A stretch of 64,000 nt of DNA from Bdellovibrionales bacterium (GTDB lineage: Bacteria; Bdellovibrionota; Bdellovibrionia; Bdellovibrionales; UBA1609), in the NCBI GenBank assembly GCA_041739415.1, contig JBGSNU010000031.1:42949-106948 (forward strand), given 5' to 3'. This document shows positions 42,289 through 63,774 of this stretch, piece after piece. Under the pieces are notes generated by a model. That model made no database searches. It was given only the letters and a program-made list of their open reading frames with translations, and had not been told where the DNA came from. Every line of letters starts with the position of its first letter. The first letter of the stretch is position 1. A program made the translations under genes and the position numbers.

Positions 42289-45042
42289 ATGACTAAGAGC
42301 AACAGGTCACGGCTCAACTCTGGAGTGCAGATCTTGAAAAAAATCAGCTGGAAGAAATATGTCACCTGGCTCGTCCACCCCATGGCGATCGGCTTCTACA
42401 TCACGATCATCACCGTTCGCCTAACATTTAGTTACTATGCAATCGCCGGACGTGAGCATGATGGCTCAAATGAGCAAGGCATTACCAGCATGCTTTATAT
42501 CGCTCACCAAAAATCAATCGACTTTCGATTGCGCGCACGAGGTCCAAGGCGCGTATCGCCAGATCTTGTGCTGTTGGCTGCAGACGAACGCTCTGTAAGC
42601 ACCGTTGGCAGATGGCCCTGGCCCCGAGATGTCATGGCAAAGGCCATCGACAACGCCATTTTGCTTGGTGCGCGTCAGGTGGCATTCGATATCGCGTTTT
42701 CTGAGTCCCAACCCAACCCCGCTGAACAAGTGACAGATAGATTGAAGACCGCGGGTGCCCTCAGCCCTGAGGTTGATTCGGCATTGGCTTCGGTGACAGA
42801 ACAACTCGATTACGACAAAGTGCTAGGCGAGGCTTTCACCAAGCACACCGATAAGATCGTCGCGGGCAGCTTTTTCAATCACGTTCTCAGCCCCATTTGG
42901 CCACCGGAGACCGATTTTTGTCGGGACATGATTTTTAAACTCTCCCCTACGGCAAAACAATGGGACCAAGAGGAAGTGTTGATCTCCGTCACGGATCCCT
43001 ATCAACCCTACATTCCAAAAGTGCTGTTTGATACCTTTCAAACCGTGCTGCAAGAGAAAGAAAAAGCCCTCCGAGAAACACTCGGAGTTCCACAAAGTCG
43101 AAGTGACGAGGTCAAACTAGATGAGCGTGTGCAGCAGGAGCTACACTCCACGTGCGACACAATCCTAGAAGACTTTCGCGAAGGTCTAAATGACCAGTGG
43201 AAGCCCGCGATCTTAGCCAGTGAGAATTCTGAGGAATTCAAGTTTCAGTCTTACGACGAGTGGCTCACCGATTTTCGCCGGAGAAATCATATCAACAGCA
43301 CCATATTTGCCGACGGCTGGGTGCTGAATACGGCCAAAATATCCGCAGGCACTAAACACACCGCCTATTTCAATACCGAGCAGGACTCAGACGGGACCAT
43401 TCGCAGCAAAGCACTGCTTGTGCGTACTGGTAACTCCTACTTCCCGAGCTTAGCGCTAAAGTCCTATTTGGTTGCCAATGGCTACAATGCGAGTCCCAAG
43501 CTTGAAGTCAATCCCGCGACTGGGTTTAAAGAATTCATTGAAATGGAAGTCCGAGACAACGAAACCGGCGACATGGTGTTTAAAATTCCAACTGATCATC
43601 AAGGCAAGCTGATGATCAATTACGCTGGACCCGATCGGATGTTTCCGTACCTCAGCTTCGCCGATCTGCTCAGTGACTCTCCCGAGGCTGAGATCGAGCA
43701 GCGTGTTTGGTCAGCAGAAAAAGGCCGCTGGGATGTGCAGGTGCGAAAAGTCAAAAAAGCCGAATTTCTAAAAAACAAAATACTGATTGCAGGCGCAACA
43801 GCCACCGGCATCTACGATTTAAGAGTCACACCGTTTCAAGAAAACTTTCCGGGGACTGAGACTCACTTAAATGCGCTGGATAATATTCTGCAACGCTCAT
43901 TTTTCCGAACGATGCCCGATGAAAAAGTATACATGCCAATCATTCTAGCTGTGCTTGGATTACTGATGAGTGTCGCGCTTAGTTACCTTGGAGCCTTGGT
44001 CAGTATTGCCCTCACTGCACTGTCTGTCGGCATAGTGATCTTTTACGACAAGAGCTTCCTGTTCAATAAGGGCATCGTCGTCTCGATCATTTGGCCACTC
44101 TTCTTGATCGGTGTTCTCTACGTGGTCTTGACCTTTTACCGCTACCTCACCGAAGAACGCGGAAAAAAGGAACTTAGACAAACCTTTCAAAAATACGTGT
44201 CTCCAGCAATTGTCGAAGAGATCTTGGCGCATCCAGCAAATATTGAACTCGGAGGACGTAAAACCAACCTCACCGTGTCGTTCTCCGACGTCCGCGGGTT
44301 CACCACCATTTCTGAGAAGCTCGATCCGAAGGCTCTGTCTGATTTGCTCAATAGCTATCTCACTCCCATGACTGACATTGTTTTTAAAAATCAGGGAACA
44401 CTAGACAAATACATGGGCGATGCCATCATGGCCTTCTTTGGTGCACCTATTGGCTACTCGGATCATGCAAAATGGGCTTGCCGCTGCGCGCTTCAGAGTC
44501 TCAATAAATTGACTGAATTGCAGGCCGAATATGCTAAAAAGGGATTGCCCAGTATTGATATTGGAATTGGCTTGAACACAGGCGAAGTCAATGTGGGGAA
44601 TATGGGATCGGAGACCGTGCGAAGTTACACGGTCATGGGCGATGCCGTTAACCTCGCATCTCGACTTGAAGGCATCAACAAGACGTACGGGACACGTGTG
44701 ATTTTGAGTGAATTCACCTACAAAGAAGTCAAAGACAGCTTCATCTGTCGAGAGGTGGATTGGGTACGGGTAAAGGGCAAAGCCCAGCCGGTCAAAATCT
44801 TTGAGCTGATTGCCGAAACCTCCGCTCCTCCGCAAACGCAAGAGATGCTTAAGTGGTTTCAAGAGGGCTACGAGCTTTATCACAAACAGCAGTGGCAAGC
44901 TGGAATCACGGCTTTTGAAAAAGCACTAAAAGTCCAGGCCAACGATCCAGTCTCTACACTCTACATTCAACGATGCCAAGATTACTCAATCACTCCGCCA
45001 CCTGAAGGTTGGGATGGCGTCTTTGATATGAAAACTAAGTGA
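42289..45042 (+). CDS. CHASE2-domain class III adenylate/guanylate cyclase with C-terminal TPR
   Basis: GRWPWPR CHASE2 motif, 3 TMs, FSDVRGFT, DKYMGDAIMA, GDAVNLASRLE. Confidence 0.93.
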   Translation: MTKSNRSRLNSGVQILKKISWKKYVTWLVHPMAIGFYITIITVRLTFSYYAIAGREHDGSNEQGITSMLYIAHQKSIDFRLRARGPRRVSPDLVLLAADERSVSTVGRWPWPRDVMAKAIDNAILLGARQVAFDIAFSESQPNPAEQVTDRLKTAGALSPEVDSALASVTEQLDYDKVLGEAFTKHTDKIVAGSFFNHVLSPIWPPETDFCRDMIFKLSPTAKQWDQEEVLISVTDPYQPYIPKVLFDTFQTVLQEKEKALRETLGVPQSRSDEVKLDERVQQELHSTCDTILEDFREGLNDQWKPAILASENSEEFKFQSYDEWLTDFRRRNHINSTIFADGWVLNTAKISAGTKHTAYFNTEQDSDGTIRSKALLVRTGNSYFPSLALKSYLVANGYNASPKLEVNPATGFKEFIEMEVRDNETGDMVFKIPTDHQGKLMINYAGPDRMFPYLSFADLLSDSPEAEIEQRVWSAEKGRWDVQVRKVKKAEFLKNKILIAGATATGIYDLRVTPFQENFPGTETHLNALDNILQRSFFRTMPDEKVYMPIILAVLGLLMSVALSYLGALVSIALTALSVGIVIFYDKSFLFNKGIVVSIIWPLFLIGVLYVVLTFYRYLTEERGKKELRQTFQKYVSPAIVEEILAHPANIELGGRKTNLTVSFSDVRGFTTISEKLDPKALSDLLNSYLTPMTDIVFKNQGTLDKYMGDAIMAFFGAPIGYSDHAKWACRCALQSLNKLTELQAEYAKKGLPSIDIGIGLNTGEVNVGNMGSETVRSYTVMGDAVNLASRLEGINKTYGTRVILSEFTYKEVKDSFICREVDWVRVKGKAQPVKIFELIAETSAPPQTQEMLKWFQEGYELYHKQQWQAGITAFEKALKVQANDPVSTLYIQRCQDYSITPPPEGWDGVFDMKTK

Positions 45043-55161: not shown

Positions 55162-56142
55162 ATGGATCTAGGCTCCAAAGATTTAATGCCACTGCCGCTC
55201 TCGGATTTTACGAAGGGCGTACGTGTGCCTGTCGATGTCTATATTCGACTCGGCGAGGAGAACTTTGTTCTGGTTTGGAAAGCTGGAACTATCAACGATC
55301 CCGAGCAATTCAAAAATTACGAGGCAAAAGAGGTCTCGTACGTTTGGGTTCTTCGCAAGGACTACTTTAAGCTTGCCCATCAGGCAGTGTCTCTAGCGGG
55401 TGTGGCGTTATCGAACAAAGATATGGCGGACTCAAAGCGCACGGTGCTTGTGACCATGGCGGCGCGCTCATTGTTTCGGCAGGTGGAGAATCAGGGAGTA
55501 GATCTCGAGCTCTACAGCAATGCTCAGCAAGTGACCGAAGCTGTTGTGGGCTTAATGGAGACCCACAAAACTTTCGGTGATCTTTTTGCCAGCCTAGCGA
55601 CGTTCTCTGATCAGTTGCTTGCCCATTCTGTTAGCGTGTCGTTTATGAGCGTGCTTCTCGGCACCAAGCTGGGCTACGAGAAGAAGACCACGCTCGAGAA
55701 GTTGGCCCTGGCTGGCTTACTGCACGATGTCGGACTGAAAGCCCTTCCCGCCGAGCTCGTGCAAAAGCCCATGGCCAGCATGACGAGTGAGGAGATTCTC
55801 CTTTTTGAAACTCACAGTTATCGAGGTCAGCAAATGCTCACTAGCTTAGGCGTCGTGCCTGAGGACATTGTTTCGATGGTCTACGAGCACCACGAAAACT
55901 CCATTGGCCAAGGCTACCCCCAGCGCATCCGCGACGTGAAGATCCACCCCATGGCCAAGATCATCGCCCTGGCCGACGCCTACTCCACGTTGACTCTCGC
56001 CAACGTCAACTGCCCCACACCCAAGAGCCCGCGCGAAGCCATAATGCACATCGAGCACACCTTGGGGATCCCCTACAACCGTGAGGCGTTTCGCGCGCTC
56101 AAACGCATCATCGAAGGCGACGACGCCAAAAAAACGGGCTAG
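55162..56142 (+). CDS. HD-GYP domain protein (c-di-GMP phosphodiesterase family)
   Basis: AHS, LLHDVG, HHENSIGQGYP, IIALADAY. Confidence 0.88.
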   Translation: MDLGSKDLMPLPLSDFTKGVRVPVDVYIRLGEENFVLVWKAGTINDPEQFKNYEAKEVSYVWVLRKDYFKLAHQAVSLAGVALSNKDMADSKRTVLVTMAARSLFRQVENQGVDLELYSNAQQVTEAVVGLMETHKTFGDLFASLATFSDQLLAHSVSVSFMSVLLGTKLGYEKKTTLEKLALAGLLHDVGLKALPAELVQKPMASMTSEEILLFETHSYRGQQMLTSLGVVPEDIVSMVYEHHENSIGQGYPQRIRDVKIHPMAKIIALADAYSTLTLANVNCPTPKSPREAIMHIEHTLGIPYNREAFRALKRIIEGDDAKKTG

Positions 56143-56257: not shown

Positions 56258-56334
<77 letters not shown>

Positions 56335-56429: not shown

Positions 56430-56756
56430 ATGGCAACCGAAAATGCCGAAGACCTCAAAATCAAAATCCCACTGACACCTTCGCAAAACACAAGTTTCCC
56501 TGCACTCATTGAAAAATTAAACTCTGATTCGGAAATGCAAATGAGTCCGATTGCTTTGAGCAACGGCTCCTTAGAGATTTCCTGCCACGATTTATCTGAT
56601 TTGCTGGAGCAACTTAAATCCAGCACTCCTCTTGAATATCATCGCTTTAAAAAACAGGCCGAGTCGGCCCTTCAAGCAATCATTCTCGCCAGCGATGAAA
56701 AACCCCATCAAAAAAAGAATTTTGTTACTGCGCTTAAGACGATCCAATTGGCTTAA
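56430..56756 (+). CDS. Small hypothetical protein of the island
   Basis: GGAGG SD before ATG; 108 aa; convergent with the integrase. Confidence 0.65.
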   Translation: MATENAEDLKIKIPLTPSQNTSFPALIEKLNSDSEMQMSPIALSNGSLEISCHDLSDLLEQLKSSTPLEYHRFKKQAESALQAIILASDEKPHQKKNFVTALKTIQLA

Positions 56757-56764
56757 AGGCAATT

Positions 56765-58114
56765 CTACGAAATGAGCTTCATCTTTCGTTTTGATTGCTC
56801 TTTGCGTTCCTGTTCGCGGCCAATTTGTTCGTTCATGTGCGAATAGATTTGCACACTACGTTCTTCGTTATGACCCGCTACCTTTTTGGCAAGAAATCGG
56901 TTTTCATCCGTCTTGTCGTAAAACCATGTCAAGAACGTGTGACGTAGCTTGTGCGGCGATCTGAAACGGAGTTTTGCCTTATCAAAAGCCTTTTGAAGAT
57001 CGCCGTAAAACATTGAAGTCGTCAGCCCTTCAAAAAGCAGATAATCCCGCGACTCTTTACCGTGAGTTTTGTCATTCAACTTATCTTGCTGTTGATTCCA
57101 TCGTTCAACGATGATGTTCCAAGATTTCTTGTCAAAGATTGGAATGAATCGATAGCTCTCAGGCTCAATTTTTCTACGAAGCTTCAATGGCTTTCGTGGG
57201 ACTGATCCCGTATCCCAGCTAATACCAAACCTATCTTTAATTCTTTTTTCTGTCCGGAGTTTCGGCAAAGCTGGCTGACTCTCCAGGCAGATATATCCGT
57301 GATAATCTTCCAGCCCGCAAACGGCCAACTGGTTATGGAGCTTATCAAGCTTCTTGCCTTTGATTTTTCCTTCAAAAACAAAAGCGAGGCAAAGTCCCAT
57401 GGCTTCGTTCTCTCGCATTCCAGTATTTGCGAGCAAAGTAAAAAAATCGTGTGAGTCTTTTCGAATCTCCAATAGTTCATTTTGGATTTTCTCGATTTCA
57501 TCTTCCTCAAGCAAATCCGAAGCGGTGACCTGAACCATTTCACTCCGCTTGTATTGCGGACACTTCAGAATGGGTTCAGCATTTGCTTTGGATACCATTT
57601 CTAAAAATACGTTTAACGCCTTAATGATTTTGTTTTGAGTGTTGAGGCTCAACTTTTCACGATTCCATTTCAGGGGCTTAACAGTTTTCAGCCACTCTCT
57701 GAATTTCGGATAATGATAGCTCCATTCCAAGTACGTCGCAGTCTGTTTCACATCCAAAAAATAATGAAAGGCGTACTTCTCAAGATAGTAAACGTCATTC
57801 TTCCAGCTATTGGGCGCACGCTCTGTCTGGTAAGTTGCAAAGTCATCGATGAGCTTCTCGTAATTGTGGTATTTCTTTCTCCACTCCGAACGTAACTGCG
57901 CGCGATATTTCGCGGCTTGTTCAACCGCGCTTTGTGAATTGCAATATTCTTTTACTTCGTCTTCGTTGGTGCTATTGCGGATGTGCAAAGGAATAGAATC
58001 CACGCGAACAGGCTCGTACCTTTTCTTAGCTTTGTTGTAAGTCCGGAACTCCCAGCGCCAGCCATCTTGCTTGCCCGTAGCCCGATTTATTTTTTTGATT
58101 TTTGCGTACTTCAA
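56765..58114 (-). CDS. Tyrosine recombinase / integrase
   Basis: TGMRENEA (R), HKLRHTF (H-x-x-R), AGH and IY catalytic motifs; GGAGGAG SD before TTG 58114. Confidence 0.9.
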   Translation of the reverse strand: MKYAKIKKINRATGKQDGWRWEFRTYNKAKKRYEPVRVDSIPLHIRNSTNEDEVKEYCNSQSAVEQAAKYRAQLRSEWRKKYHNYEKLIDDFATYQTERAPNSWKNDVYYLEKYAFHYFLDVKQTATYLEWSYHYPKFREWLKTVKPLKWNREKLSLNTQNKIIKALNVFLEMVSKANAEPILKCPQYKRSEMVQVTASDLLEEDEIEKIQNELLEIRKDSHDFFTLLANTGMRENEAMGLCLAFVFEGKIKGKKLDKLHNQLAVCGLEDYHGYICLESQPALPKLRTEKRIKDRFGISWDTGSVPRKPLKLRRKIEPESYRFIPIFDKKSWNIIVERWNQQQDKLNDKTHGKESRDYLLFEGLTTSMFYGDLQKAFDKAKLRFRSPHKLRHTFLTWFYDKTDENRFLAKKVAGHNEERSVQIYSHMNEQIGREQERKEQSKRKMKLIS

Positions 58115-58565
58115 AAGGCACTCCTCCAAGCCAACTTTTCGGAATCACGTACGAATTGCTTGAGTTTAGGATTGGTCTGGCTCTTATGCCGCGCTTTTGA
58201 CGGTACGCCCAGCAAAATCAGAAATTACGCTATGTTTCGCGGGATCAACGTCAAATAATCCTTAGCCATAAGTCCTGCTCATTCCGTACGACCCCGGCCA
58301 TTTGTGGAGTAATTTGCTCAATAGAGCACGTGTCGTTTTTTAATAATCCACTCTCAACTTTTAATAAAATCGCCATCAAACGCCCCTCTTATTGCCGACC
58401 GTGCGCCTTTAAATGGCCTTGGTTCGCCCGTGGTTGCATTTTTGGGGGCCAAACCTTGCAAGAAACCATATCAGGCAACATCGTGGCCTTAAAAGCAGAA
58501 CATTGAGATTATTAAAAATCACTCTGTCGCAGTAGTAATCTTGCATCTGCTGTTACATTTAAAAA

Positions 58566-61442
58566 TTATTTTCCTAAGAACAACTCGCTACAACTCTTAC
58601 CGGCAGCGCCCGAAGGCTTAGATGACTTCGTAGGAGCCGTTGTAATTGGAATAACTGGAGCCTCAGCTTTCAGCCTTGCAGCAATACCATAATTTGAATC
58701 ACGGTAAATTTCTGCGCTGTGATTACCGGTCAAGCCATTGCCGTCGCGGATTTGCTTTGCAATTGCATCCATCCGAACCTGCAAAACTTCTTGTACACGT
58801 TGCGAGTTAACTTCTTGACGGCCCGCTTGCATCACCTGAGCTAATACTTGAACACCAAGTTTAAAAAAGTCCGCTCTACTAACGGTCTTTCGCAAGTTAT
58901 CCAACATTGCAGGACCATAATACAACAACAGAGCGGGATCGCCTTTGAAGCCAGTCGCAGAGAACTCGCGTTCTAAAATAGATCGCTCGTTCGCTGGAAG
59001 CTTTTGTATAGCCTGGAATAACTCTTCACCGTCGGCTGCTGTTTGGCAACGGAACATTAGGCCAACGCGAGTCATCCAAAGCGGACGACTTCCATCAGGC
59101 ATTATGCTTGAACTTCTTTGACGAAGAAACTCTTGGTAAGTTGCTTTTATAGATTCCTCTGTATTTGCCATGCCCTCAATGCCACCCATCGCCGTTCTAA
59201 TCCCGGCATAGGTCGGTTCAGTTAGCACCAGCGAGCCATTGATGTTATCTTGGCCACGGGCGGCAGCAATTTTCAAAATTGACGTCGCCAAGTAAAAGTC
59301 TCGCGCGTCTTTTGAGCGATTGGCATGTTCTTTCAAAAGTCTGGCCGGAGCTTCGCCTTGCGCAAGCTGCGCGAGGTTAAATTCTTTTTCAAAACTGTTA
59401 ACAACCATCTGCCTTTGGAATTCGTCGAGACGCTGGTAGGTCGGCGAAATGAATGGATAAAGTTTTAGCAGTTCAGACATAACACGTTGGTGATTTGTCT
59501 CCTGAATGCCAGATGATTTTTTGAGGTACGAAATCGCAGCTTCCGATTTTCCTATATTGTTAAAAATTAAAAATGAAAACAATGCGTCTCGCATAGACGG
59601 ATTGAACGCCACTCGCCGAACAAGTTTCGAAATTTCTAAAAATGACTCTCGGCTCAGTTTAATATTTTCGGGTTGCCCATGAACGAAACCGTCGTAATCG
59701 CCCGCGATAAGCCGCTTGAACAATAATAAGGCGGCGATGGTGCGATCAAACTCAGGATATGGTTTATTGAACAACGACGTGGCTAAGGATTGCTCCAAAG
59801 CTTGGGGTACTGAACCAACTTGCTTTGGGTAAGTCGCTTCATTTTTAGAACCGAGCCAGCCAAGCTCAGGCGTCAAAGATACGCGTTCAGTTGTAGATAC
59901 CAATTTAGCGGCGATAGCCTCAGGAGTAGCAACCACGCCCTCTGTTAACAAAATCAATTCCGGATAAGATTCCAAGACCACACGAATCAACTCTTGATCA
60001 GTGACGCTTTCAACGCGTCGGTAGAGGTCTCTTAACTTACGAGTACGGCTTTCGTATTTTCTTTGGATCGCAGGAATTTCTAATCCTCGCACCAAACGCA
60101 ACGGCCCGCGTTTATAACCCATGTTTTCAAATTTCTTTGTTGGGTCCGAATCAAAACGAGGATCTCTCGTAAGTTGTAAAGCAACTGCTTCTGTTTCTGG
60201 ATCAAGTCCAATATCTCTGACCAACACCACAGGAACTTGCTTTGTTAACGCGGACTGAATAATGCCTGCGTCTTTTGCCTCTCCTCGCAAAGCAACGACC
60301 TCGATTTTCTGTTTCAGCTCGTTATCCGAAAATATTGAATCAACGGCATTATCGGCAGCGATAACAACTAAATCCTTACGAGTTGGATTTTTGGCAAGTT
60401 CCGCGGCAATCCAATCGCGTGCGCGGCCCACACCTTCCTGATGAGTCAAAACAAACAATGTGTCGGAACTATATGTTGATGTGATTTGATCGACGTATGA
60501 CTTCAAGAGGGAAAAGTCTTCGTATCCGAGGCGGCCATATCCAGCAAGTACGACAGTTCGCCGATGACCTCGCGTCAGCGACATCAATTCCGAGGAAGAT
60601 GACAATTCAACATGGGTCGATTTTTGGATAGCCAACCCAAGCTGTCCGGTAAGGTCAAAATGTGTCGGCACTTTTTTGCCTCGAACTTGAACTGACTTTA
60701 CCGCAGGAGAAATTCCATTCTCGATTTCTAAAGTTAAGTCCGCATAGGCTGATAAGTATTCAACTGATTCACGAACTCCGGAGGACATTTTAATAACGAG
60801 GTCTCTTGGCACAAATCGCCCGGTTACTTTGCCTCGTGCTTCCACTCGCTGCAGCAGAATTTCTTCGGGCGCATTAACTGAAATAATTGAAATGGCATAC
60901 TCTGGGTGGGATTGGCGGATGCGACGAAATTCAGAAACCCACCAGTCTTTTCCTAAAAGTGTTCCATCAACAATGATATTCTTTTTTGAACGTAGGGCTT
61001 GCTCAAAAAGTTCCTCTTGAATATGGCCTGATTCACGATGAACGAGTGACGCCGCATCTTCGGGCTTCGTCTGCTTTAGATCTTTGTATTCGGGAATATC
61101 TTCTTTGATTGCATCGGGATCGATCCAGATGAACCTTGATACGTCCAAAAGGTCGAGTTTTTCTAATGCAGACGCGACAAATGATTTTCCAGCTCCGGCG
61201 GGACCGGCAGTAAAAATAAGACGTGGCTTTTCATCTGAAGCCCCAGCCTGCATTCTAACGTCGACAATTTTTTTATGAAGCGCAGCCCGCAGTGGAAGGT
61301 AAGTAAATTGCCATTGACCGGTTTGGGTAGCGTATTGCGACGCTGTATCTTGCGCATCAGCAGCAAATGAAAAAGCAGAAGACACCACAATAAGTGCGAA
61401 GAGAAAGTGTCTTGCCTGCTTTTTTAAAACTGCCAAAGCCAT
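58566..61442 (-). CDS. Secreted multidomain protein: Zeta-toxin-like P-loop kinase + SLOG-like region + degenerate HD-like (DUF6829-like) domain
   Basis: Signal peptide; GPAGAGKS, IDPD, VDGT, RxxxRxxxTGRFVP; aa ~483-925 align with the N-terminal half of the upstream gene. Confidence 0.75.
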   Translation of the reverse strand: MALAVLKKQARHFLFALIVVSSAFSFAADAQDTASQYATQTGQWQFTYLPLRAALHKKIVDVRMQAGASDEKPRLIFTAGPAGAGKSFVASALEKLDLLDVSRFIWIDPDAIKEDIPEYKDLKQTKPEDAASLVHRESGHIQEELFEQALRSKKNIIVDGTLLGKDWWVSEFRRIRQSHPEYAISIISVNAPEEILLQRVEARGKVTGRFVPRDLVIKMSSGVRESVEYLSAYADLTLEIENGISPAVKSVQVRGKKVPTHFDLTGQLGLAIQKSTHVELSSSSELMSLTRGHRRTVVLAGYGRLGYEDFSLLKSYVDQITSTYSSDTLFVLTHQEGVGRARDWIAAELAKNPTRKDLVVIAADNAVDSIFSDNELKQKIEVVALRGEAKDAGIIQSALTKQVPVVLVRDIGLDPETEAVALQLTRDPRFDSDPTKKFENMGYKRGPLRLVRGLEIPAIQRKYESRTRKLRDLYRRVESVTDQELIRVVLESYPELILLTEGVVATPEAIAAKLVSTTERVSLTPELGWLGSKNEATYPKQVGSVPQALEQSLATSLFNKPYPEFDRTIAALLLFKRLIAGDYDGFVHGQPENIKLSRESFLEISKLVRRVAFNPSMRDALFSFLIFNNIGKSEAAISYLKKSSGIQETNHQRVMSELLKLYPFISPTYQRLDEFQRQMVVNSFEKEFNLAQLAQGEAPARLLKEHANRSKDARDFYLATSILKIAAARGQDNINGSLVLTEPTYAGIRTAMGGIEGMANTEESIKATYQEFLRQRSSSIMPDGSRPLWMTRVGLMFRCQTAADGEELFQAIQKLPANERSILEREFSATGFKGDPALLLYYGPAMLDNLRKTVSRADFFKLGVQVLAQVMQAGRQEVNSQRVQEVLQVRMDAIAKQIRDGNGLTGNHSAEIYRDSNYGIAARLKAEAPVIPITTAPTKSSKPSGAAGKSCSELFLGK

Positions 61443-61452
61443 ACCTAACTTC

Positions 61453-63774
61453 CTATCTTGAAATCGCGGCTAAATGATCTGCTACGTTCATAAAGAAGAT
61501 TCCCGCCATGCTTTGATCAACATGCACAAACGGATTCCATGGATTTCTTCCGTCAACCACCACGCGAGAAGGGATCGGAAGAACTTGAAGGCCTAATTGG
61601 CCGGTCAAAGCGCGTTGCCATGTCAGCGGCGTTTTTCCAAAACGCGCATCGTTGGCTCCGGTCATGTCCCATTTTGTATAATTCTGGAGAACCTGCGTTG
61701 ATTGAGTTTGATTAAGTTGAAAATATCTGGCTCCCGCAGAACCTAAGATCGCGCTGGCATTATTCGGAGAATCAATCCCGGCAGCAACAATCGTCGAAAT
61801 TTTATTTTGAACCGGCACTTCGCCGATAGCCGACAACACTCTTAAATCTTGGTCTGGGGTCGATTTTGCGCTGTTGAGTTGAGACGATGCTTTGATGGGA
61901 TAAAGAGCGTCGCCGCCCGTATCCACTGTGATAATCGTATCCACTCCTCGGAGCTGTTGGTTCAAAGAATTAAGTTGTCCAACCAAAGTGCCGTTCTGGC
62001 GATCCATAACCAAAAACATTGGGACTTCGTCACTCGGAAGATTTTCGAGAAACCTTCCGCTTCCAGTTGTTTGCGGCAAGATTCTATAAGTGCCACTTAC
62101 AATTTCGCCGCCGTGCTGCGAAACGGTTCTATCTTCTCCGTCACGTCCACTAACACCTTGAGACGCGGTCTTCTCTGTTCTTACAGAGGCAACATAAACA
62201 AGTTCTTTACCAGCATTTTTCAGAAGTAACCCAAGTTGCGCCGCTTGTATTCCATCTGAACCGCCACCTATTCCTATTACGGCAACGCGATGGCCCGGAA
62301 TCTCTGATAAACTGTTGAGTGGTGTGAATTTGGCTGAGTCAATAACCTGTCGGTCAACTAATTTTGCTTCGCCATCTTTCGCAACAAGATCAATTTCAAT
62401 TTTCTTTTGAACTAACTGCTCTGGAGTTTTTCCGGCCTCAGCGATTTTTGAAATCAAAAGCGTGAAGACGCCATCGCCGTTGCGACCTTTAATTGTTACT
62501 CTCGCTTCTTGATAAAGTTGCGCAAGAGTCGTAAGGCCCAATTGAATGCCTGCATGCTCACTTAAAATTGTTGGATTTGCCTTTGAATAAGCAAGGATAT
62601 TTGAAAGCAAAGCTGGCGAATAATAGAGTAGCGTTCCGTATCCGTCGCCAGTGCCGTTGATGTTCATTTCTTTAACTAAGATGGCCTTTGTATTTTGAGA
62701 AAGGCTGTCAAATGCGGCCGTGATTTTCGATGCCGTGTTCGTGTCTGATACGCGCATCATAGTTAATAAACGCGTTAATGCACGTTCTCGCGGAACTTCA
62801 ACCCGCAAACCAAAAGGACGTCCTTTTTCAGATAAGAAGTAGTTGTAAACATCAACTTCAGAGCGGCCCTGTGCTAAACTTTCGATAGCTTTAATACCAA
62901 GTTTGAATCCGTCGTATGTCGGATTAGACATGACGACTGAGCCCTCCCAATTAACATGGCCTGCGGCTCCGCCAATGTCTGCGACGGCGTGAAGCAAATA
63001 GAAATCAAGACTTTCTTTATCTAAGCCCTTTAAGCCAGAAAGGCTCGCGGCAAGGTTTTCGCCTTGAATGAACTGACCGATGTTGAACTTCGGTCTCAGT
63101 CCCCGGATCATTTTCTGCTGGGTCGCAGGAGATAATCGAGCAAAACTTGGTGAAAGGTCAGGATGGTTTTCTAAAGCGATAAGCAAAAGGTTATCGTGAT
63201 CGACGTCTTTAATGCCTGCGCGCTTTTCAATTTCGCCGACAATGGACTTAATTTTTCCGAGGTCGTTGATCACCATGTATGTAATCATGGCGTCAATATC
63301 TTCCGGAGTTTTGAGGATTGAGCGAGTGTAAGCTCGGAGTTCATTAAAATTTTCACGGGTCATTTTAACTGCCGCGTTCTGGGGTTTTGTGAAAGCGTCG
63401 TAGTTGCCTTCAAGAATCCATTTGATAAGCAGGATTCCCGTCGCAGTTCGATCAAACTCAATGTGCTTTTCGCCAAACATTTTTTCCGAAAGTGATAGGA
63501 CTTTATCTGATGTTGCCTTGCCTTCAGGTGTCGCATTTACTTTTCCCGTTAGCCATGCAAGTTCGGGATACTGAACCAACGACATTCGGACTACTTCGAT
63601 GGGATCGTTAGTGGCAAAAAACTTCCTGACAAAGGACTTCGGATTAGTAGGCATTGCCTTCTCACTTCGGGCGCCGGCGTTTAGGAAAAGGTCTTGGCAA
63701 GACATTGCATGGGCATGAGGGAGGCTCATGGACAATGACAAAAAAAGGATAGCAACTGTTGAACTTTTAGACAT
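61453..63774 (-). CDS. Secreted two-domain protein: HD-like (DUF6829-like) domain + DUF1152-like domain
   Basis: GGGAG SD; signal peptide ending AHA; EFDRT, NDLGK, DHD and HAVAD motifs; C-terminal GIGGGSD, VDTGGD and GIDSP. Confidence 0.75.
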   Translation of the reverse strand: MSKSSTVAILFLSLSMSLPHAHAMSCQDLFLNAGARSEKAMPTNPKSFVRKFFATNDPIEVVRMSLVQYPELAWLTGKVNATPEGKATSDKVLSLSEKMFGEKHIEFDRTATGILLIKWILEGNYDAFTKPQNAAVKMTRENFNELRAYTRSILKTPEDIDAMITYMVINDLGKIKSIVGEIEKRAGIKDVDHDNLLLIALENHPDLSPSFARLSPATQQKMIRGLRPKFNIGQFIQGENLAASLSGLKGLDKESLDFYLLHAVADIGGAAGHVNWEGSVVMSNPTYDGFKLGIKAIESLAQGRSEVDVYNYFLSEKGRPFGLRVEVPRERALTRLLTMMRVSDTNTASKITAAFDSLSQNTKAILVKEMNINGTGDGYGTLLYYSPALLSNILAYSKANPTILSEHAGIQLGLTTLAQLYQEARVTIKGRNGDGVFTLLISKIAEAGKTPEQLVQKKIEIDLVAKDGEAKLVDRQVIDSAKFTPLNSLSEIPGHRVAVIGIGGGSDGIQAAQLGLLLKNAGKELVYVASVRTEKTASQGVSGRDGEDRTVSQHGGEIVSGTYRILPQTTGSGRFLENLPSDEVPMFLVMDRQNGTLVGQLNSLNQQLRGVDTIITVDTGGDALYPIKASSQLNSAKSTPDQDLRVLSAIGEVPVQNKISTIVAAGIDSPNNASAILGSAGARYFQLNQTQSTQVLQNYTKWDMTGANDARFGKTPLTWQRALTGQLGLQVLPIPSRVVVDGRNPWNPFVHVDQSMAGIFFMNVADHLAAISR

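Follow-up and report, generated by a model that had tools for sequence, protein, structure and literature searches.

Little is known of the means by which predatory bacteria disable and digest the cytoplasm of their prey, or of how their enzymes arrive there. Two adjacent genes in the window, the whole 64,000-nucleotide stretch analysed here from a Bdellovibrionales bacterium, raise this question in a compact form: what would two proteins with domains of nucleotide-acting folds do once exported, and do they act together? The pair is a small test case comprising an apparently intact kinase, a predicted hydrolase, a conserved putative pseudoenzyme and a short tag common to other exported enzymes.

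Mobile element carrying the pair

Both genes lie on the minus strand, with gene A placed 10 bp after the stop codon of gene B in the list of open reading frames; B is upstream, and the gene order is thus B then A. The initial annotation had reported this co-oriented pair beside an integrase at a tRNA-fMet, and all of these elements were recovered:

56258..56334, plus strand: tRNA-fMet, tRNA-Met(CAT), left border of the element; the DNA downstream varies among relatives
56430..56756, plus strand: 108-aa open reading frame between the tRNA and the integrase, from the list of open reading frames
56765..58129, minus strand: tyrosine integrase, 454 aa, pointing toward the tRNA (Phage_integrase, E 5.8e-11)
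58566..61442, minus strand: gene A, 958 aa, with predicted signal peptide, Zeta-like kinase, degenerate SLOG, DUF6829 and C-terminal Cys tag
61453..63774, minus strand: gene B, 773 aa, with predicted signal peptide, Cys tag, DUF6829 and DUF1152-like domain

The tRNA was assigned as an initiator because it displays a C1:A72 mismatch and three G-C pairs in the anticodon stem, features that distinguish initiator tRNAs. The GC content is 0.50-0.54 across 48-57 kb and then falls to 0.44-0.46, and the integrase is found in none of 16 relatives, compared over 1.5-kb flanks of the gene upstream of the tRNA. A second copy of the pair, 87% identical in DNA sequence along 6.7 kb, occurs in a genome from another family (G034) on a different integrative element, with another tRNA and another integrase; there, a 67-nt tRNA-Gly repeat (81% identity) lies ~20.5 kb away. 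The integrase, the tRNA, the composition shift, the variable site and this second copy establish that the pair is carried as cargo on a tRNA-integrated mobile element, as had been proposed. A direct repeat of the tRNA 3' end was not found in this assembly, in which the contig stops 1.4 kb beyond gene B. A promoter and terminator scan was uninformative (3 promoter-like sites against 10.1 expected), and no RNA sequencing runs containing the pair were listed.

Domain architecture of A and B

The two proteins comprise the following predicted segments, all encoded on the minus strand:

63706..63774: B, Sec signal peptide, residues 1-23, AHA cleavage site (anatomy and hydrophobicity rule)
63682..63702: B, N-terminal Cys tag SCQDLFL directly after the predicted signal peptide, holding the sole Cys of B
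62494..63564: B, DUF6829, residues 71-427, predicted HD-like helical fold
61456..62307: B, DUF1152-like domain, ~residues 490-773, predicted PIG-L/LmbE-like fold
61353..61442: A, Sec signal peptide, ~residues 1-30 (anatomy and hydrophobicity rule)
60747..61241: A, Zeta-like P-loop kinase, residues 68-232 (Pfam, E 8.8e-27)
60108..60578: A, degenerate SLOG-fold domain, ~residues 289-445, recognized via homologues
58806..59819: A, DUF6829 devoid of metal ligands, residues 542-879 (Pfam, E 2e-41)
58575..58595: A, C-terminal Cys tag SCSELFL, found in all five A-type proteins

The domain common to A and B, of which every motif quoted in the initial annotation is present, aligns at 29% identity over 407 columns (BLASTP, E 1e-51) and is an already catalogued Pfam family, DUF6829 (PF20717), scoring 142.5 bits in A and 248.3 bits in B with a gathering cut-off of 27. 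Within bacteria, Saccharimonadota and Chlamydiota hold the most DUF6829 clusters; the named relatives belong to Patescibacteria, Gastranaerophilales and Bdellovibrionales, and the two families, DUF6829 and DUF1152, have members in Patescibacteria as well as in Chlamydiota, fungi and giant viruses. Both families are uncharacterised, neither being named in any paper found in the literature searched, and an assay series on the pair could yield their first function.

The predicted fold of DUF6829 is HD-like, its recurring structural neighbours being (i) the body of tRNA nucleotidyltransferase/poly(A) polymerase, (ii) the GppA/PPX C-terminal domain, (iii) the Cas3 HD domain, and (iv) PDE5, with weak matches to the HD/PDEase superfamily (Z 6.7-8.2). 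The canonical HD metal-ligand pattern is H...HD...D. DUF6829 conserves N170-D171, D192-H193-D194, H262 and D266 (B numbering) across the family, differing from that superfamily by an Asp-rich site and by N-D for H-D at the second motif, where Asn replaces the first His of the HD pattern. B keeps all of these residues, in addition to E106 and R109. In A, N629, N650, Q652, T720 and K724 replace D, D, D, H and D, respectively, and all five A-type domains have lost five of the six conserved acidic/His positions (D>N/Q, D>N, D>Q, H>T, D>K). D171, D192, D194 and D266 are kept in 75/76, 76/76, 76/76 and 75/76 of the non-A domains, whereas their equivalents are all replaced in 5/5 A-type domains. As judged from these alignments, the putative acidic metal site is intact in B and lost from A, which is a new observation. 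An intact and a degenerate DUF6829 also occur in tandem within a single protein, P0048.

Comparison with the G034 copy gives dN/dS values of 0.029 for gene B and 0.049 for gene A, the latter comprising 0.017 for the kinase, 0.091 for SLOG and 0.036 for DUF6829; every folded domain of the pair shows dS of 0.4-0.7 and dN/dS within 0.017-0.091, with no sign of diversification. Because its putative metal ligands are replaced in 5/5 A-type proteins and yet it evolves under purifying selection, the A DUF6829 is best read as a pseudoenzyme. In quick trees, a single long-branch clade holds the A-type domains, with B outside it; P0027 and the split P0033 and P0039 domains were omitted from the first tree, and the second comprised 40 of 81 domains. 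A recent tandem duplication giving A and B was considered and set aside in view of this separate A-type clade, but grouping the A-type domains with the near relatives of B is not rejected (p-AU 0.46). An origin by duplication, as the earlier term paralogues implied, is thus neither supported nor contradicted.

The kinase of A scores 94.3 bits against Pfam Zeta_toxin (cut-off 22.3), in agreement with its first description as Zeta-toxin-like. Alignment to 2p5t and 1gvn indicates that A keeps the Walker A motif GPAGAGKS and D110, E143 and T161, equivalent to Zeta Asp67, Glu100 and Thr118; the Arg120 position is L163 in A and Arg in two of five A-type proteins, and Thr128 falls outside the aligned stretch. 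The kinase also displays a His-x-x-Ser motif, which presumably resembles that of NADKc. Weak matches to polynucleotide kinase (PHROG, E 6.5e-5) and AAA_33 (E 7e-14) led us to consider activity of the HD-Pnk type, that is, nucleic-acid end healing; A matches Zeta much more strongly, however, and such a role sits poorly with export. The search for shorter kinase relatives of A returned one match among 1353 candidates.

Zeta/PezT toxins (PF06414) are UDP-GlcNAc 3'-kinases, in which Asp67 is the catalytic Asp and Glu100, Thr118, Arg120 and Thr128 bind UDP-GlcNAc (PMC3062530). A resembles them as a P-loop kinase, but displays a predicted signal peptide, fused SLOG and DUF6829 domains, and an unconserved Arg120 position; it is flanked by B and the integrase rather than by an epsilon/PezA-type antitoxin, and reaches 18 bits against the PezT equivalog NF041574 (cut-off 470). 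Other Zeta-fold kinases act on NAD instead of UDP-GlcNAc, including plant NADKc (10.1101/521658) and AvrRxo1, a secreted type III effector reported to make 3'-NADP and to enter another cell (PMC5087710, PMC5491322). Set beside AvrRxo1 by description, A differs in having a Sec-type rather than a type III signal and a different partner; a PDB profile search with the A kinase returned no AvrRxo1 chain at E <= 10.

The SLOG-like module assigned to A is supported through its homologues and is degenerate. It has no direct Pfam match, and an Atlas search with the middle domain of A gave no usable match. A profile search, on the other hand, retrieved 26 new proteins, of which seven match LSDAT_prok (PF18171) at E < 0.05 and two, stand-alone proteins homologous to the A domain, exceed its cut-off; hhalign of the A domain against one LSDAT_prok-matching protein gave 96.6% over 152 columns. 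The GGT, AGIVS and GG..S..E motifs kept by most homologues are absent from A. SLOG domains of ThsA and TRPM2 bind ADP-ribose derivatives (10.1101/2021.01.06.425286). By sequence, A thus combines an intact Zeta-like kinase with a degenerate SLOG and a DUF6829 pseudoenzyme. The earlier view of nucleotide-enzyme-like domains stands for both proteins as regards their folds; with the metal ligands lost from DUF6829 and SLOG degenerate, A is left with one intact catalytic-looking domain.

B is likely a two-domain metal-dependent hydrolase. Its structure model has pLDDT 88.8 and pTM 0.87; a single-sequence fold (pLDDT 34) was discarded. The DUF1152-like domain first noticed in B falls below the Pfam DUF1152 (PF06626) cut-off (17 against 27 bits, E 0.0037), with relatives at 19-26 bits and two genome matches above it, but is supported by structure (Atlas TM 0.70, and 0.74 by target; BFVD E 4.9e-5, TMt 0.65). 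The GGGxD and DTGGD motifs of DUF1152 are invariant in 46/46 rows, as are D507, R574, E577, D618, D622 and D643. B belongs with the DUF6829 and DUF1152 fusions of Patescibacteria and others, many of which are 40-55% identical to it over >90% of the length (Atlas feature score 0.96, TM 0.72), and is distinguished from them by its predicted signal peptide, Cys tag and A partner. Foldseek of the B model against the PDB retrieved nothing at E <= 0.001, and searching PDB sequences with the profile of B produced a single chance row.

The predicted structure of the DUF1152 domain matches the PIG-L/LmbE deacetylase fold, which raises the possibility of targets in the envelope or periplasm of the producer itself, e.g., GlcNAc-containing wall or lipid intermediates. 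The zinc motifs of PIG-L are His-based (HxDD and HxxH). In B these are replaced by Asp motifs, no His is invariant in the domain, and a Pfam PIG-L match is likewise absent; in addition, the periplasm is not known to contain ATP, and the pair is rare and mobile, making an own-envelope target very unlikely.

Export signals, Cys tag and recurrence of the pair

The signal peptides reported for both proteins are predicted from n/h/c-region anatomy and a hydrophobicity rule only: values of 2.5-2.6 exceed the threshold of 2.2, and the anatomy is conserved in 5/5 A-type proteins and in the near relatives of B. Most B-type relatives, including those of Patescibacteria, have no signal peptide. Predicted export signals are associated with a terminal Cys-x3-Leu tag (17/20 against 3/60). 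The kinase subfamily of A gave 19 matches across the phylum, of which 16 were examined: the signal-peptide rule is passed by 12 of the 15 whose 5' end is complete, and a Cys lies within the last 22 residues in 12 of the 14 whose 3' end is complete. A lipoprotein reading of the B Cys was rejected because its relatives are devoid of a lipobox and the Cys of A sits C-terminally. The literature searched contained no description of this pair or of this tag.

A full A occurs in two of 401 phylum genomes, a rarity that limits its ecological weight, and a scan of genome and metagenome contigs for A returned only a broken copy in G014 and the G034 record, which is not independent. The possibility that A and B are uncoupled, i.e., independent Cys-tagged exported enzymes travelling together by chance, with the A DUF6829 as a ligand-binding or structural module in cis, draws on signal-peptide Zeta+SLOG proteins devoid of DUF6829 (P0086, P0090), on three Cys-tagged genes of unrelated sequence in tandem on contig C56 of the source genome, and on the broken A-type fragment of G014, which has no B upstream. 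We consider it quite unlikely, given that B lies directly upstream in both genomes with an intact A and that contigs of sequencing runs X2 and X5 bridge the A-B junction; circumstantially, a 62% relative of A and a 66% relative of B sit on contigs of equal size (7601) from the same sources. The host gene lying upstream of the tRNA has zero cover in run X2, an observation not counted as evidence. The search for the pair elsewhere thus bore out its co-occurrence, in G034 and on the junction-bridging contigs. Recurrence of the pair agrees with the proposed, still putative two-subunit module, but the pairing is not obligate: B is independent of A, and B-type genes without an A neighbour are present in four genomes (G023, G020, G324, G312).

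Candidate functions

We tentatively favour, at somewhat less than an even chance, a joint prey-directed module acting on nucleoside-diphosphate metabolites, either UDP-GlcNAc-like or NAD/ADP-ribose-like. A and B would leave the cytoplasm by Sec, and the terminal Cys-x3-Leu tag would route them onward to a place holding ATP, most simply the prey cytoplasm. There, A would use ATP to phosphorylate a nucleoside-diphosphate acceptor and block the use of this acceptor by the prey; B, able to work alone, would cleave or dephosphorylate nucleoside-diphosphate compounds; and the dead DUF6829 of A may dock A on the DUF6829 of B, or bind the ligand of B and thereby regulate the kinase. So placed, the kinase and the hydrolase would probably alter and degrade nucleotide-type metabolites of the prey. 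Precedents include AvrRxo1, described above, and predicted effector systems of Bdellovibrionota in which CapCone-2 adjoins a second effector (PMC12419801): the latter share with A and B two adjacent secreted proteins and a proposed action on prey, but comprise other domains, have proposed membrane targets, and neither protein is described there as a pseudoenzyme partner. The earlier interpretation as a two-subunit effector or nucleotide-scavenging module is partly supported.

Scavenging without toxic action is an unlikely alternative, in which exported B would degrade nucleotide cofactors or nucleotide sugars, either in the periplasm or inside the prey, to pieces small enough for import, with A serving as an accessory protein to trap or tag one of the products. 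B-type proteins found alone, also in host-dependent lineages, the strong purifying selection described above, and the lack of any immunity-type gene adjoining the pair in the source genome (list of open reading frames) agree with it; free scavenging, however, would not provide the ATP that the A kinase requires, and patchy presence (10/384 genomes of the order) with mobile carriage fits conflict genes better than nutrition.

As element cargo, the pair might instead serve anti-phage protection or element stabilisation, B neutralising the product of the A kinase. AbiEi/AbiEii adjoin the pair in G034, a nucleoside-deoxyribosyltransferase-like domain and a DSP phosphatase are fusion partners of DUF6829 in other proteins, and Zeta kinases are the toxins of toxin-antitoxin systems (PMC3062530). 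Against this, neither A nor B matches a PADLOC 2.0.0 family at E <= 0.01, no relative of B was found in phage, plasmid or viral-contig collections, and the conserved signal-peptide anatomy points away from the producer cytoplasm, so that a defence or addiction role is rather improbable.

A more elaborate form of the prey-directed module would combine an undescribed address with an enzyme-pseudoenzyme heterodimer; that both hold jointly is unlikely. Bdellovibrionota would deliver cytoplasm-type enzymes into prey by means of Sec and a Cys-x3-Leu helix, and the dead DUF6829 of A would clamp the Zeta-like kinase onto the HD-like/PIG-L-like hydrolase of B, the complex phosphorylating and dismantling the UDP-GlcNAc or NAD pool of the prey. 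Other host-dependent bacteria appear to add export leaders of their own to the DUF6829 and DUF1152 core. If true, the heterodimer would give DUF6829 and DUF1152 a first function.

Gene pair and shared domain

Genes B and A are real open reading frames (ORFs) that, as the initial annotation had described, lie 10 bp apart in the same orientation and beside a tyrosine integrase and a tRNA-fMet gene; B comes first:

61453-63774, minus strand, gene B, real ORF, 773 aa
58566-61442, minus strand, gene A, real ORF, 958 aa
56765-58129, tyrosine integrase, downstream of the pair
56258-56334, tRNA-Met(CAT) with initiator features in its sequence, downstream of the pair

The domain said to be common to both proteins is borne out by an alignment of 407 columns in which 29% of residues are identical (E 1e-51), and by the assignment of Pfam DUF6829 to it in each, these two copies being the only matches genome-wide. 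The DUF1152-like domain proposed for B is recovered as a Pfam match, although below threshold (E 0.0037).

The main new result concerns the DUF6829 copy of A, which is a predicted conserved pseudoenzyme. Among 76 DUF6829 domains outside the A type, D171 is retained in 75, D192 in 76, H193 in 75, D194 in 76, H262 in 68 and D266 in 75; all five A-type sequences keep the H at 193 but have N or Q in place of D171, N for D192, Q for D194, T for H262 and K for D266, a loss of family residues that counts as one evolutionary event because the five are kin. Between the window and G034, a genome of another family of the same order, dN/dS (computed at dS 0.4-0.7) is 0.036 for the DUF6829 of A, 0.017 for its kinase, 0.091 for its SLOG region, and 0.030 and 0.019 for the domains of B. 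Low dN/dS and replaced residues together argue for a conserved pseudoenzyme and against a decaying copy.

Protein P0048, with a signal peptide, carries intact and degenerate DUF6829 domains in tandem within one chain, which hints that such pairs can work together; its degeneration is unlike that of A. Proteins P0015 and P0036, probably from Omnitrophota, hold the DUF6829+DUF1152 core within long carriers that have either a conserved domain at the front or a tail with GGIDLN, and stand-alone DUF1152 occurs in the giant viruses Hyperionvirus and Klosneuvirus (BFVD A0A3G5AD54, A0A1V0SJT1).

Kinase and SLOG-like modules of A

The Zeta-toxin-like kinase attributed to A is confirmed by a Zeta_toxin match at residues 68-232 (E 8.8e-27), with retention of Walker A and of the equivalents of Zeta Asp67 (D110), Glu100 (E143) and Thr118 (T161); the Arg120 position is L163 in A and Arg in two of the five A-type proteins (for the roles of these residues, see PMC3062530). 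A falls short of the PezT equivalog and no antitoxin gene adjoins the pair, so that A is Zeta-like and not the toxin of a Zeta toxin-antitoxin system. Since Zeta-fold kinases also phosphorylate NAD, including AvrRxo1 (PMC5087710) and NADKc, another that acts on NAD (10.1101/521658), the acceptor of A is not fixed to UDP-GlcNAc.

The SLOG-like module stands in part, with the first loop retained but three motifs gone. A search of the full representative library with the middle domain of A returned 29 proteins, 26 of them new, of which 7 match LSDAT_prok weakly and 2 over its cut-off; a few are chance matches. SLOG domains of ThsA and TRPM2 have been linked to ADP-ribose derivatives (10.1101/2021.01.06.425286).

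Insertion site and distribution

GC content falls from 0.50-0.54 to 0.44-0.46 where the tRNA and integrase lie. A 108-aa ORF (56430-56756), convergent with the integrase, separates it from the tRNA, just upstream of which lies an HD-GYP-like gene (55162-56142); a membrane adenylate-cyclase-like gene occupies 42289-45042, both recognized from motifs by eye. All but one of the 17 other genomes in the genus carry an orthologue of the HD-GYP-like gene; the tRNA follows it in 8 of these 16 loci (L056-L071), the DNA past it varies, and none carries the window integrase within 1.5 kb flanks of that gene. Within the genus, the tRNA-fMet site seems to be a hotspot for insertions, and other integrase-like ORFs stand immediately past the tRNA in loci L065, L066 and L069 (by eye).

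The same pair was found in G034, where B, A and a divergent gene beyond B, weakly matching replication initiators (E 0.0014), show 87% DNA identity to the window over 6.7 kb. There the pair lies at a tRNA-Gly, with a different integrase and AbiEi/AbiEii, and a degenerate tRNA repeat occurs about 20.5 kb from the tRNA-Gly; this integrative element of about 20.5 kb (L011:5087 to L012:5712) also holds the replication-initiator-like gene and a DNA methyltransferase. That the pair itself is defence or addiction cargo seems to us rather improbable.

DUF6829 is patchy, occurring in 10/384 genomes of the order (8 over the cut-off), and full-length A is found in 2/401 phylum genomes and in five protein clusters including its own (7996 candidates scored). 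Both genomes with intact A, the window genome and G034, have B immediately upstream, and contigs from two of four public sequencing runs examined (X2, X5) span the A-B junction. B does not require A, since B-type genes occur without an A neighbour in genomes G023, G020, G324 and G312, that of G020 being split into two ORFs (L014:7809-10281); in G014 a broken A-type DUF6829 fragment adjoins an integrase-like remnant (L015:1373-2628). We give little credence to A and B being unlinked neighbours. A separate Zeta-like kinase is encoded on another contig in 3/5 sampled DUF6829 genomes (G467, G681 and G392; G000, which carries the window, and G034 excluded) versus 16/394 others (Fisher p 0.0009), only a hint because two of the three share one family.

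Export signals, terminal cysteine and proposed action

The Sec-type signal peptides assigned to both proteins remain predictions, from signal-peptide anatomy at each N-terminus. Immediately past the predicted cleavage site B carries SCQDLFL, and A ends in SCSELFLGK. When 80 DUF6829 proteins were split by a hydrophobicity rule, C-x3-[LFI] lay near a terminus in 17/20 proteins passing it versus 3/60 others, kin among them not being independent. In G000, soluble signal-peptide proteins of at least 300 aa hold 17 terminal motifs where 6.8 would be expected (Poisson p 0.0007); for the remaining proteins the count is 15, with 20.3 expected. This enrichment is modest and rule-dependent, since a cruder test was not significant (p 0.14). 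The phylum sample gave 19 kinase-domain matches, 16 of them scored: the signal rule was passed by 12/15 with a complete 5' end, and of the 14 whose 3' end is complete, 12 have a Cys among the last 22 residues, the strict pattern being present in 7; the three unscored matches have signal-like N-termini too (by eye). Of 18 hand-picked tagged G000 proteins, 11 gave no Pfam match; the other 7 match CN hydrolase, CotH kinase, metallophosphoesterase, ABC1 kinase, PLD, alpha/beta hydrolase and MutS_V. Two of these are kinases, and MutS_V is an ATPase domain of the MutS type. With tag and signal recurring across the kinases and G000, A and B seem to belong to a broader class of exported enzymes, of which some would require ATP.

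A secreted Zeta-fold kinase is in print (PMC5087710), two-gene secreted effector systems have been predicted in Bdellovibrionota (PMC12419801), and proteins of predatory Omnitrophota are reported to carry normally cytoplasmic domains (10.1101/2023.11.21.568195). No paper naming DUF6829 or DUF1152 was found in the literature searched, which took in few subscription papers, and no description of the A-B pair or the Cys tag in titles and abstracts, although the supplements of PMC12419801 could list such neighbourhoods. At the level of sequence, A-B is a real, mobile and undescribed enzyme-pseudoenzyme pairing.

The reading that we tentatively prefer, each functional step of which we infer, is that both proteins would be exported, reach prey contents and act there on nucleoside-diphosphate metabolites. 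A would phosphorylate such a metabolite, either (i) UDP-GlcNAc-like, in keeping with the PIG-L fold as well as the Zeta residues, or (ii) NAD/ADP-ribose-like, in keeping with SLOG; B would hydrolyse compounds of the same kind, and the dead DUF6829 of A would dock on B or sense its ligand. Scavenging by the pair is an unlikely alternative, and action on the producer's own envelope a very improbable one.

The Zeta-like kinase subfamily extends phylum-wide (L029, L032-L033, L035-L041, L043-L047, L049, L090-L092), mostly with signal-like N-termini and terminal Cys, at about 320-1500 aa and with varied partner domains, including several SLOG domains in P0086, P0087 and P0090. The C-x3-L class of G000, with the motif at one terminus and mostly a predicted signal peptide, comprises loci L072-L089 on contigs C2, C4, C9, C13, C28, C35, C36, C37, C42, C43 and C56, the last with three such proteins in tandem (90763-96424).
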